From Gemmatimonadota bacterium (GTDB lineage Bacteria > Gemmatimonadota > Gemmatimonadetes > Palauibacterales > Palauibacteraceae), in the NCBI GenBank assembly GCA_049668445.1, contig JBATJK010000179.1, positions 10,567 to 74,566 of the forward strand: 64,000 nucleotides of DNA, in the 5' to 3' direction. The notes under the pieces were generated by a model that saw only the letters and a program-made list of their open reading frames with translations, was not told the DNA's origin and did no database searches. Below, piece after piece: positions 46,618-49,081 of this stretch (its first letter is position 1; each line of letters starts with the position of its first letter). The position numbers and the translations under genes were made by a program.

Positions 46618-47019
46618 AAGCGCCGAGACCTGCCCCCTACGAACTAGTCCTCGCTGCGCTGCGGAGACGTTCTCCGGGGGCAGGCACTCGACGCCCAAAA
46701 ACCCCTCACCGACAGCAGCGACCGGCGCGCGGCGATCAGTATCGGAGGCGGCCGAGCCATCTAAACACTTGCTACATAATATCATGCGGGGCCGTCGCGT
46801 CTCCGCACGAGACATACCGGCTCATTCCTTGGTGAGCGCCGACGACCCTCGCCGCCCCCGAAGCTAACGCACCCGCAACGACTTAGCTGACCGGTCCGAT
46901 GCGAGTACTCGTACGGCACACATCGTGCGCCCCGACGAGCCTGAAATACACCCGCCTCACGCGCCCCGAGGCAAGGCGTTGTGTCTTGCTGAGCTTTCGG
47001 CAGCGGCCCAACAAAGAGT

Positions 47020-47211
47020 CGCGCGTCGTCTGCGCCCTTTTGTTCACCGCCTTGGCTCCACTCTGCAACTCGGGCAGCAGGCCACGGAGACTGCGAGGCG
47101 GACTGCCTGCTTAAGAACAACTGCCTGACCGGGTCAACGAGTTGCATCTATGAGACAACGTGCGGTGGCGAGCCGTATTCGTGCTCCATTGCCAACAAGA
47201 AGGCCAACTAG
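47020..47211 (+). pseudogene. Decayed tandem copy of the downstream Cys-rich secreted peptide gene (start lost, frameshift between signal and mature parts)
   Basis: Mature-peptide-like frame DCEADCLLKNNCLTGSTSCIYETTCGGEPYSCSIANKKAN* ends at 47209-47211 and aligns with the intact copy. A signal-like remnant (VVCALLFTALAPLC) lies in a different frame with no ATG or RBS. Confidence 0.4.
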
Positions 47212-47268
47212 AGTCACAGTCGGTCCCCCAAGGACTATGCCAAGTGAGTCTCATAAAGGGAGGTTGCC

Positions 47269-47478
47269 ATGAGGAAGGTCCTCGTCGTTTGCGCACTTCT
47301 GTTCACCGCTCTGGCCATGTTCTGGGTGGCATCTATTCAGGCAGCAGACCAGGAGGATTGTGAGAAGCGGTGCCAGAGGATCAACGATTGCGAGAACGGA
47401 TCAGCAAGCTGTGTTTTTGAGACGACGTGTGGCACGGAGCCGTTCTCGTGCACTGTTCCGAGCAAGAAGGCCAACTAG
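47269..47478 (+). CDS. Small secreted cysteine-rich peptide (69-aa precursor, about 41-aa mature peptide with 6 Cys)
   Basis: Strong RBS GGGAGG 7 nt before ATG; signal peptide MRKVLVVCALLFTALAMFWVASIQAADQ; mature DCEKRCQRINDCENGSASCVFETTCGTEPFSCTVPSKKAN with a C-x3-C-x5-C-x6-C-x4-C-x6-C pattern; lies in the lower-GC islet. Confidence 0.6.
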   Translation: MRKVLVVCALLFTALAMFWVASIQAADQEDCEKRCQRINDCENGSASCVFETTCGTEPFSCTVPSKKAN

Positions 47479-47506
47479 GAACTGATTCTCGTTGGGGGAC
47501 CGATAA

Positions 47507-48568
47507 TTGGCTGAGAAACTGGTTGACCGAATAGTACTGGCGGCGCTAGTGGCAACGAGCGTCAGCTGCGCCGATACGCATGAGGGATACAGTCCACCAG
47601 AAGGACTAGAGGTCAAGCGCTTGGTTGTCAGCGAGCTGCTCGTCGAGAGCGACATCCGCGGACTCACTTATGACTTCGATGTTCAGGGCTCTCGGATTGT
47701 CGTCGCAGACGTCTATGCCGACTCAGCCATTGTCGTGTTTGACACAGCAGGCACAGTCCTTCGACGCCTTGGGCCTAAGGGGGAGGGGCCTGGAGAGACG
47801 GGCGTGATTACAGACCTCGAAGTGCGCGGAGACACGGCGTGGTTATGGGATACGAGCCTGAGCCGACTGTACTCTCTTGATCTGGCCGATCCTCAGGCTG
47901 GCCTTGTGGGACGCACACTACCAGCCCCAGGCGAGGGAACAGTAGCTGCCGTCCACCGAGCCAACAATCGCTTCTACGGAACAGGGGCGAGTCGCCAAGG
48001 AACGTTCGCCGAATGGTCGGCCGACTCCTCCAAAGTCCACTGGAAGGGAGAACACAGCCGCCTCGTACGTCGCTTGCCCAAGGAACAGTGGTTGCATGTC
48101 GCCTATACATTCTCCGCCATTCAACCCGACCTTGGCCGACTCGCCCTGGGTTTGCACCAGACCGGTGAGTTCTTGATCGTCGACCTCGCGACCGGAGAGA
48201 CATTGAGCGAACGGCAAGTTGGGTCCTGGCCGATCTTAACTGAACGGATTACACGAGGCGACATGTGGAAGTATCGAATGACCGAGGAGGCCATCATGGG
48301 TTACTATGGGGCTTCAGCCAGCTCGGGCCACGTCGCCGCGTTGTTCATAGGAAAACCAGAGGCAGAGGCCGACCTCGAGAATTCGTATGACGCACGGGAC
48401 ATCCATGTATTCGACTGGAATGGCGAGTTGATCGACATATACAGACTCGACCGGCCCGTCGTTGACATCGCACTCACGGAAGACCGTCTATATGGATTGA
48501 TTGTAGAGCCTATTCCGCAGATCCGCGTGTGGAGGTTGCCGAAGGTCATTCAAGCACCGTGCTTCTGA
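47507..48568 (+). CDS. Hypothetical lipoprotein (possible beta-propeller fold) encoded after the Cys-rich peptide
   Basis: Lipobox LAALVATSVSC; 353 aa with a coding-like pattern; GC content about 55%, lower than the genome background. Confidence 0.55.
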   Translation: MAEKLVDRIVLAALVATSVSCADTHEGYSPPEGLEVKRLVVSELLVESDIRGLTYDFDVQGSRIVVADVYADSAIVVFDTAGTVLRRLGPKGEGPGETGVITDLEVRGDTAWLWDTSLSRLYSLDLADPQAGLVGRTLPAPGEGTVAAVHRANNRFYGTGASRQGTFAEWSADSSKVHWKGEHSRLVRRLPKEQWLHVAYTFSAIQPDLGRLALGLHQTGEFLIVDLATGETLSERQVGSWPILTERITRGDMWKYRMTEEAIMGYYGASASSGHVAALFIGKPEAEADLENSYDARDIHVFDWNGELIDIYRLDRPVVDIALTEDRLYGLIVEPIPQIRVWRLPKVIQAPCF

Positions 48569-48589
48569 TCTGTACTCGGCGGTGTGGGC

Positions 48590-48937
48590 CTACTCCCCGA
48601 ATACTCCAAACAACGCCAAGCCGAGTGTCCAGACAGCCGAGCCGGCCGTGGCGCCCAGTAGAGGCCCGGTCTGGAACGCCGTCGCCGGCTCACCCCTTTG
48701 CAGGACCGATCCGTCCTCACTCGACAGGTGAGTCGCAGCCACGATCGCCGTGAGGGAACAGACGGCCACCAGGACTAGCAGCTGGCCGGCAGCTCTCAGA
48801 CGAACTGACTCACGTTCACTCGCTAGTTCGAAGGGTACTGCCTACCCCTCCGCCGAGGTTACTCCCAGGATCAGGATGAGGATGATCGCGATGACGATCA
48901 CCGCCAACCAGTGAATCCGGTTCTTCGGATCGAACAC
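48590..48937 (-). pseudogene. Small three-TM membrane protein gene interrupted by an in-frame TAG (31-aa N-terminal ORF + 83-aa in-frame continuation)
   Basis: GTG start at 48937 with GGAGAGGAGG RBS: VFDPKNRIHWLAVIVIAIILILILGVTSAEG-TAG-AVPFELASERESVRLRAAGQLLVLVAVCSLTAIVAATHLS...GPLLGATAGSAVWTLGLALFGVFGE*. The second part has no start codon or RBS of its own. Confidence 0.35.
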
Positions 48938-49081
48938 GCGATACCTCCTCTCCACTTCCGGGCGCGGCGCGTTACGAATTGCAGTCGTTCTCGCGGCCCT
49001 GCCGCCTTCCTGGAGCGCGTCTCCGCAGCGAAGCGAGGACTAGCGCGAAAGGAAGGCGGCAGGTGTCGTGTATGCGTCTGC

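Follow-up and report, generated by a model that had tools for sequence, protein, structure and literature searches.

Several described systems bear comparison with the locus considered here. Pairs of a Sec-dependent bacteriocin and an immunity lipoprotein are exemplified by the lantibiotic LanI lipoproteins NisI and SpaI. In the quinoprotein amine dehydrogenases, a small Cys-rich periplasmic polypeptide (the light chain of methylamine dehydrogenase, MADH, or the gamma subunit of quinohemoprotein amine dehydrogenase, QHNDH) has a seven-bladed propeller as its partner, and these small subunits carry a Trp-derived quinone and require dedicated maturases. Known NHL proteins are eukaryotic RNA-binding or protein-binding domains or a lyase, and the TolB_like propeller family (PF15869) was defined on Bacteroidales proteins. 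The locus lies in a 64-kb stretch of DNA from a Gemmatimonadota bacterium (64,000 nucleotides of contig JBATJK010000179.1, hereafter the window), where a low-GC islet between a DUF4340 gene and fumC encodes a secreted Cys-rich peptide and, directly downstream, a 353-aa lipoprotein of the TolB_like family. This islet was inserted, its composition is foreign, and the peptide and lipoprotein genes in it are a conserved pair with the same orientation. We consider it highly probable that this is a lineage-specific insertion of ~2.23 kb of compositionally foreign DNA carrying a peptide-propeller cassette, the products of which would act as a complex in the cell envelope.

The insertion is most clearly visible in comparison with relatives that have the same flanks. 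The left conserved flank is the DUF4340 gene (45676..46617, plus strand; Pfam PF14238, E 8.8e-17), the last gene of an ABC/GldG-like operon, which is called as 313 aa in the identical contig L001. The right conserved flank is fumC, encoding a class II fumarase (49082..50479, minus strand; Pfam Lyase_1, E 2e-104, and FumaraseC_C), and an identical protein is encoded in NCBI assembly GCA_049665475.1 as well as in Logan assemblies and a JGI metagenome. The nearest species representatives by fumC are Gemmatimonadota metagenome-assembled genomes (MAGs), and the window is part of the chromosome of an uncultured member of this phylum. The relatives that we fetched with their fumC were L008 (fumC 94% identical in amino acid sequence), L009 (76%) and L010 (69%), all Gemmatimonadota. 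The two flanking genes are convergent, with a spacer of 4 nt in L009 (9236-9239) and of 60 nt in L010 (11387-11446), where a GldG-like gene comes next. Convergence of fumC and DUF4340 with 4-60 nt spacing is the ancestral arrangement. In L008 a single intact 157-aa TonB_C gene (9717-10190; Pfam E 5e-11), with normal GC content, separates the two genes. Alignment by blastn pairs window 50600-48958 with L008 7997-9639, window 48949-48850 with the beginning of the TonB_C gene (L008 9706-9804) at 89% nucleotide identity, and window 46602-45000 with L008 10305-11931. Window 46603-48849 occupies the place of 500 bp in L008 (9805-10304). Junction alignments put the left breakpoint at the DUF4340 stop codon and the right breakpoint at ~48848, at TonB_C codon ~29-30, giving an islet of ~2.23 kb from 46618 to ~48848.

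The remnant of the TonB_C gene in the window is a stump of 31 codons (48842..48937, minus strand; VFDPKNRIHWLAVIVIAIILILILGVTSAEG followed by a stop codon) that retains only the Shine-Dalgarno sequence, the start codon and the transmembrane anchor, and that has 89% nucleotide identity to L008. The minus-strand open reading frame (ORF) from 48937 to 48590 is broken by an in-frame TAG, which is reached after eight foreign codons. The rest of it is a relic ORF with two hydrophobic segments and no family match (48590..48838, minus strand) that arrived with the inserted DNA; only its last ~16 codons are common to the cassette of contig L088 described below, the homology of which stops at window 48637. 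What had been described from the letters of the window alone (hereafter the sequence-only reading) as a disrupted small membrane protein gene is the TonB_C stump joined in frame to this relic ORF brought by the insert. Because a truncated gene cannot be ancestral to the intact TonB_C gene, the window represents the derived state, produced by insertion and deletion. The islet is not present in L008, L009 or L010, which keep the flanks; such absence from close relatives with the same flanks is a feature of classical genomic islands. Since the TonB_C gene is itself missing from L009 and L010, the junction has received DNA at least twice, the TonB_C gene and then the islet, and it is thus a small insertion hot spot. 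The 7-mer CGCCGAG occurs at both islet junctions (46622-46628 and 48852-48858), perhaps as microhomology that served the illegitimate recombination, or by chance (rough estimate ~0.1).

The composition of the islet sets it apart from its surroundings at all window scales. The GC content is 65.2% for the whole window, 59.4% for the interval 46620-48950 and 57.0% for the core at 47100-48600, and 300-nt windows drop to 54-55% at 47100-47700 and 48150-48600. For each window size tested (300, 600, 1000, 1500 and 2330 nt), the lowest GC content of the 64 kb is reached in a window at, or starting within, ~47100-47250. The GC content of third codon positions (GC3) is 0.81±0.04 for resident ORFs (n=37; minimum 0.72). 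The lipoprotein gene, at 0.635, is ~4.7 standard deviations under the resident mean, and the peptide gene has a GC3 of 0.70. Both base composition and codon usage are accordingly atypical in the way that is known from classical genomic islands. The sequence-only reading had proposed a lower-GC islet with a drop in codon bias between the GldG/DUF4340 operon and fumC, at 55% versus 67% GC over 46620-48950. The sliding-window GC and GC3 calculations found a strong deviation, so the dip and the codon-bias drop are real and the islet stands; but the mean contrast is ~6-8 points and not 12, and the first ~480 nt of the interval (46620-47100), with a GC content of ~0.64, are not GC-poor.

The peptide and propeller genes form a self-contained two-gene cassette that is found at unrelated sites in other Gemmatimonadota-type contigs. 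The module common to L088 extends over window 47198-48637 with 82% nucleotide identity. In L005 and L088 the propeller is 89% identical and is preceded by the same peptide gene (88%), with a RadC/JAB gene upstream of the cassette in L088 and a different gene set in L005. In L007 and L103 the propeller is 67% identical, with a 74-aa homologous peptide gene before it and an FtsX/MacB permease gene after it; NCBI assigns this propeller to Candidatus Palauibacterales, a Gemmatimonadota order. The pair is thereby kept at 88/89% and again at 67% protein identity. In L006 the propeller (73% identical) follows an unrelated gene, and no peptide gene is present in the 347 nt visible upstream. The flanks of the other cassette-bearing contigs had no match to the window or to other Gemmatimonadota loci. 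The GC content and GC3 of the cassette are below those of its neighbours in every host (four besides the window), for example with a GC3 of 0.67 in L007, where the permease gene has 0.92, and of 0.69 in L088, where the RadC gene has 0.81. The proposal that the islet was horizontally acquired is supported by its composition, by its absence in three relatives and by the occurrence of the cassette in unrelated contexts. Because the known relatives of the cassette are Gemmatimonadota, the donor was probably inside the phylum.

Both genes of the cassette are real and under strong purifying selection, as judged from their substitution patterns. The ratio of nonsynonymous to synonymous substitution rates (dN/dS) between the window and L088 is 0.06 for the peptide and 0.08 for the propeller (dS 0.7-1.2), and is <=0.25 in deeper comparisons. 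The peptide gene (47269..47478, plus strand), called alike in identical contigs, encodes 69 aa, comprising a Sec-type signal peptide, MRKVLVVCALLFTALAMFWVASIQA, and a 44-aa mature part, ADQEDCEKRCQRINDCENGSASCVFETTCGTEPFSCTVPSKKAN, with six invariant Cys residues, a net charge of ~-3 and no Trp; its homologue P0004 is 88% identical. Upstream of it is a degenerate tandem copy, a pseudogene at ~47010..47211 on the plus strand, with 67.7% nucleotide identity to the live gene over 198 nt. The mature part of this dead copy is still legible at 47074-47208 (AAGHGDCEADCLLKNNCLTGSTSCIYETTCGGEPYSCSIANKKAN), while its ATG has become ACA, its Shine-Dalgarno sequence is gone and an 8-nt deletion causes a frameshift between signal peptide and mature part. 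The dN/dS of the mature part against live copies is low (0.06-0.24), and so the dead copy was inactivated recently. The gene content given by the sequence-only reading, namely a Cys-rich peptide gene with a degenerate tandem copy, a 353-aa lipoprotein gene and a broken membrane-protein gene, is confirmed. The peptide has no convincing family match in Pfam, NCBIfam, PADLOC or PHROG; the best Pfam scores are noise (WAP, E 0.15; DUF2976, E 0.078), and there is one weak PHROG match (E 0.035). In an exhaustive profile search of 1.84 billion representative proteins, the peptide had no relatives outside the cluster to which it belongs. The other profile matches, to three C2H2 zinc-finger proteins of eukaryotes and to a repeat-rich beta-propeller protein (SBBP/FG-GAP), were treated as spurious fits of the motif CGxEP[FY]SC to zinc-finger linkers and of Cys-rich repeats.

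The lipoprotein gene (47507..48568, plus strand) encodes what is predicted, with moderate confidence, to be a six-bladed NHL-like beta-propeller. The protein scores 37.2 bits against PF15869 (cut-off 29.2) over residues 59-326, with a weak match to DUF5128 (PF17170), and all its homologues bear a precomputed PF15869 assignment. A scan against NCBIfam produced no BF3164 match at E<=1, yet an identical protein is labelled "MAG: BF3164 family lipoprotein [Gemmatimonadota bacterium]" by NCBI. An AlphaFold2 (AF2) model based on a six-sequence alignment consists of successive beta-strand units and is of moderate confidence (pLDDT 67.7, pTM 0.71). The top Foldseek matches in the PDB are the six-bladed NHL domains of Brat, TRIM2/3/71 and Thin (E 1e-10 to 4e-8, TMt 0.5-0.65), with further matches to peptidyl-alpha-hydroxyglycine alpha-amidating lyase (PAL; 3fvz), to lactonases including Drp35 and to the MADH heavy chain, and a sequence profile search of the PDB matched NHL repeats at residues 55-127 (E 9e-10). 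Cys21 of the putative lipobox (...LVATSVSC21ADT) does not vary among the six proteins aligned and is preceded by A/V-G/S. There are three close clusters of relatives (89, 73 and 67% identity) among 5.8 billion sequences, and a profile search adds two remote ones. The only Cys of the mature propeller is the penultimate residue, Cys352 (...PCF), which is invariant in four close homologues and may carry a free thiol or take part in an intermolecular disulfide; an interchain disulfide between Cys352 and the peptide was set aside, since the Cys counts are inconsistent across lineages (6+1 here, 5+1 in L100).

Public calls of the identical lipoprotein gene differ, at 90, 315, 339 and 353 aa (L001 6182-6454; 315 aa in L002 and L003), although L001 and L003 match the window nucleotide for nucleotide (100%) in this region, and several annotations miss the lipoprotein signal peptide. 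The 90% cluster of P0003, the propeller with 67% identity, also lists P0026, a JGI protein of 101 aa that bears the name "plasmid stabilization system protein ParE" and is probably a fragment or a naming error. The literature searched contained no mention of PF15869, DUF5128, BF3164 or NVEALA. In Bacteroidales genomes, arrays of "NVEALA" small proteins stand beside BF3164-type propellers. The six-bladed propeller BamH of the Bacteroidetes BAM is unrelated to the question of this lipoprotein.

A partnership between peptide and propeller is suggested by the conservation of the pair and by a census of distant TolB_like/DUF5128 propellers from metagenomes. The census used a fixed definition of a candidate partner, which was an upstream small ORF on the same strand with a signal peptide and >=4 Cys. 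Such an ORF is present in 5 of 11 propeller lineages with visible upstream DNA, or 4 of 10 if the window family is excluded, compared with a background of 13 of 898 large ORFs (1.4%) in 81 unrelated loci; a rough binomial estimate is ~1e-5, for a small and non-random sample in which L115 was scored manually. The upstream ORFs, all on the same strand as the propeller gene, are of 70 aa in L100 and 138 aa in L105, each with a 4-nt start/stop overlap, of 99 aa in L109, with a 13-nt gap, and of 84 and 76 aa in L115, where two occur in tandem. They have four or five Cys residues and a signal peptide, are unrelated in sequence to the window peptide and belong to no Pfam family. It is tentatively proposed, as a view that we would not yet favor, that TolB_like/DUF5128/BF3164 propellers are in general envelope modules with diverse small, secreted, disulfide-rich partners that move as cassettes. 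Two low-GC contigs, L110 (9716-13343) and L106 (8525-10969), have two or three tandem DUF5128-type propeller genes without a small Cys-rich ORF before them; the propeller family also expands alone, without peptides.

We envisage the following sequence of events. The lineage shared with L008 would first have gained a small TonB_C gene at the fumC/DUF4340 junction, and the islet would then have replaced the 3' 80% of that gene together with the spacer by illegitimate recombination, with no involvement of an integrase, a tRNA or a target-site duplication. With an intergenic gap of 28 nt on the same strand and no terminator-like site between them, the peptide and propeller genes are likely to be co-transcribed. 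The peptide would be exported by Sec, oxidized to three disulfides in the periplasm and bound by its cognate lipid-anchored propeller, to give a 1:1 cell-envelope complex of the ligand/receptor or of the small subunit/large subunit kind. A generic complex of this type appears to be the most likely role of the pair, followed by toxin and immunity protein, with enzyme and substrate the least likely.

The noncoding DNA around the cassette contains two related hairpins and a conserved element. The left hairpin (46629..46684, plus strand) is situated 11 nt 3' of the DUF4340 stop codon, inside window-specific DNA, and contains the left arm of a 44-nt inverted repeat. The right hairpin (48998..49063, minus strand), 18 nt 3' of the fumC stop codon, is resident DNA, because L008, which lacks the islet, has the same copy at the same place (9531-9602). 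The arms of the inverted repeat (46635-46678 and 49009-49052) are 82% complementary and bracket the islet with 2330 nt between them. The sequence-only reading had reported that no integrase, tRNA or direct repeats are visible, which holds for all three, but it had overlooked this inverted repeat. The left hairpin folds with -43.1 kcal/mol (z -4.5) and scores 76 bits with a covariance model, against 99.5 bits for the right copy and 97.9 for that of L008. A 26-nt core, CTAGTCCTCGCT[G/T]CGCTGCGGAGACG, is almost the same in both hairpins, and compensatory changes distinguish their stems. They have no U-tract and no Rfam match (the best, Pseudomon-Rho, scores 23 bits against a threshold of 45), and by inspection they lack integron attC cores (RYYYAAC...GTTRRRY), with no integron integrase nearby. 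A dispersed family resembling repetitive extragenic palindromes (REP) was rejected, as in ~200 kb the covariance model yielded no copies besides the two of the window and their orthologue in L008. The hairpin may be a lineage-specific terminator or structured RNA, and its left copy could have arisen by local inverted duplication during the rearrangement or have come from a donor with the same terminator family. The conserved noncoding element (X element) is 66 nt long (46909..46974, no strand assigned) and precedes the dead peptide copy by ~40 nt. Its counterpart in L006 (1603-1670), which is downstream of the propeller there, has 84% identity to it in an alignment with two 1-nt indels, and the element is better conserved than the propeller genes (72.5% nucleotide identity between the window and L006). 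Its minus strand resembles a hairpin with a T-rich tail, and the conservation points to a regulatory element or to the edge of a tandem-cassette unit.

The pairing of peptide and propeller can be read in more specific ways than a generic complex. If the peptide were a Sec-dependent bacteriocin-like toxin, the propeller would be an immunity protein that sequesters it at the envelope, and the gene order, with a secreted peptide gene directly before a co-oriented gene for a membrane-anchored protein, is indeed that of bacteriocin pairs. The compact, mobile and context-independent nature of the cassette, the tandem duplication and decay of peptide genes here and in L115, and the lack of sequence relationship between partner peptides of different propeller lineages are all compatible with this idea. 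However, the peptide is anionic (net charge ~-3) and not cationic and amphipathic, it has a Sec signal only, and it is under strong purifying and not diversifying selection (dN/dS 0.06). The islet encodes no exporter, double-glycine leader or outer-membrane route, the propeller, at 353 aa, exceeds the usual size of immunity proteins, and no PADLOC or bacteriocin family was matched; a defense system was likewise rejected, with no PADLOC match. Given an anionic, conserved peptide and the lack of an exporter, we regard toxin and immunity as rather unlikely. Another possibility is that the propeller modifies or processes the peptide, in the manner of other six-bladed propellers such as PAL or the lactonases, or that the peptide is a cofactor-bearing small subunit as in the quinoprotein amine dehydrogenases. 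The Foldseek matches include PAL (3fvz), the Drp35 lactonase and the MADH heavy chain, and the tight coupling of the genes, extending to 4-nt overlaps in L100 and L105, is typical of subunits; but the best structural and sequence matches are non-enzymatic NHL binding domains. There is no conserved Trp for a tryptophan tryptophylquinone (TTQ) or cysteine tryptophylquinone (CTQ) cofactor in the window peptide, P0004 or copy 1, and no C-terminal Gly as expected of a PAL substrate. Nor does the islet resemble a cluster for ribosomally synthesized and posttranslationally modified peptides (RiPPs), as the propeller gene is its only other intact gene and it encodes neither a radical-SAM enzyme nor another kind of maturase (YcaO, LanM). 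Motifs for metal binding or catalysis were not identified, and since neither a catalytic signature nor a maturase was found, an enzyme-substrate relationship is the least likely of the roles and, in our estimation, improbable. A generic ligand/receptor or subunit complex is accordingly preferred.

The origin of the DNA can also be read differently. It is formally conceivable, but improbable, that the islet is native DNA with a low GC content due to local constraints, or a cassette relocated within the same chromosome. The relatives of the cassette are Gemmatimonadota, the hairpin of which the islet has a copy occurs elsewhere, as far as known, solely in the terminator region of the resident fumC, and there are no mobility genes, but a GC3 deficit of 3-5 standard deviations is not explicable by amino acid content, the same deficit against the flanks recurs in four other hosts, and the segment is missing at this locus in three relatives. 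An intragenomic move would leave the composition unexplained, although DNA that had been acquired earlier may have been relocated within the same genome. That the whole 2.4-kb region is a non-autonomous transposon, with the 44-nt inverted repeats as its ends, has in its favor that nothing comparable to the repeat appeared in shuffled sequences. We reject it as extremely improbable: the right arm is at the orthologous place in islet-free L008, outside the insert and beyond the TonB_C stump, and each arm is itself a terminator-like hairpin 11-18 nt past a stop codon. Neither a transposase nor a target duplication is present, the 200 kb searched contained no additional copy, and the islet shows neither terminal inverted repeats of its own nor the multiple copies of an insertion sequence, transposon or miniature inverted-repeat transposable element. 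A phage or plasmid origin was rejected too, given no viral, plasmid or PHROG match other than one weak match of the peptide (E 0.035). Several observations nevertheless weigh against a foreign insertion encoding an envelope complex. The known relatives of the cassette are all Gemmatimonadota, and their amino acid divergence (67-89% identity) resembles host divergence, so that an old residence in the phylum with repeated relocation may be the explanation. No viral contig, plasmid DNA or plasmid protein matched the cassette, and a mechanism of transfer is not shown by the DNA itself, with no tRNA in the 64-kb window, no integrase-sized or mobility-domain ORF in the islet and no flanking direct repeats or target-site duplication beyond the 7-nt CGCCGAG; the integrase, tRNA and direct repeats of a genomic island are all missing. 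The left hairpin inside the islet resembles the resident fumC hairpin. The AF2 model of the peptide is poor (pLDDT 58), and 6 of the 11 census lineages (L098, L106, L107, L108, L110 and L113) have no small Cys-rich ORF upstream of the propeller gene. Insertion of a foreign cassette with products that would form an envelope complex is still the reading that we consider highly probable.

As a genome feature the locus is an ordinary small acquired islet, of which both breakpoints are placed within a few nucleotides and the ancestral state is identified. Its cargo joins a propeller lipoprotein of a family without known function to a co-inherited, secreted, Cys-rich orphan peptide. The pair is very rare, and a similar pairing with unrelated peptides recurs in distant propellers far above the level of background genes. 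A physical complex of peptide and propeller, if real, would provide a testable hypothesis for the whole BF3164/TolB_like family, and if the propellers were general two-component modules, for example toxin/immunity or ligand/receptor pairs, this would be the first functional handle on the family.

The islet resembles classical genomic islands in its atypical composition, its absence in relatives, its accessory cargo and the disruption of a resident gene, but differs in being only 2.2 kb in size and in having no integrase, tRNA or direct repeats; an indel produced by illegitimate recombination where convergent genes meet is the better description. The lipoprotein is like the TolB_like/DUF5128/BF3164 lipoproteins in its PF15869 score, lipoprotein signal and predicted six-bladed propeller, but it is very isolated in sequence within that family, with three close and two remote clusters in 5.8 billion sequences, and comes from Gemmatimonadota. 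The NHL propellers, Brat, TRIM2/3/71, Thin and PAL, are its best structural matches, although their identity to it is 12-16% and the NHL signature is present in one blade only. The locus has no homology to the LanI-type pairs, and it differs from them in its anionic, conserved peptide, its large propeller and its lack of transporter and modification genes; what is shared is the order of peptide and then lipoprotein, the envelope location and the small mobile unit. Compared with the quinoprotein amine dehydrogenases, six blades are predicted rather than seven, the mature peptide has no Trp and there is no maturase, but the islet has in common with them a small Cys-rich periplasmic polypeptide with a propeller partner encoded adjacent to it.

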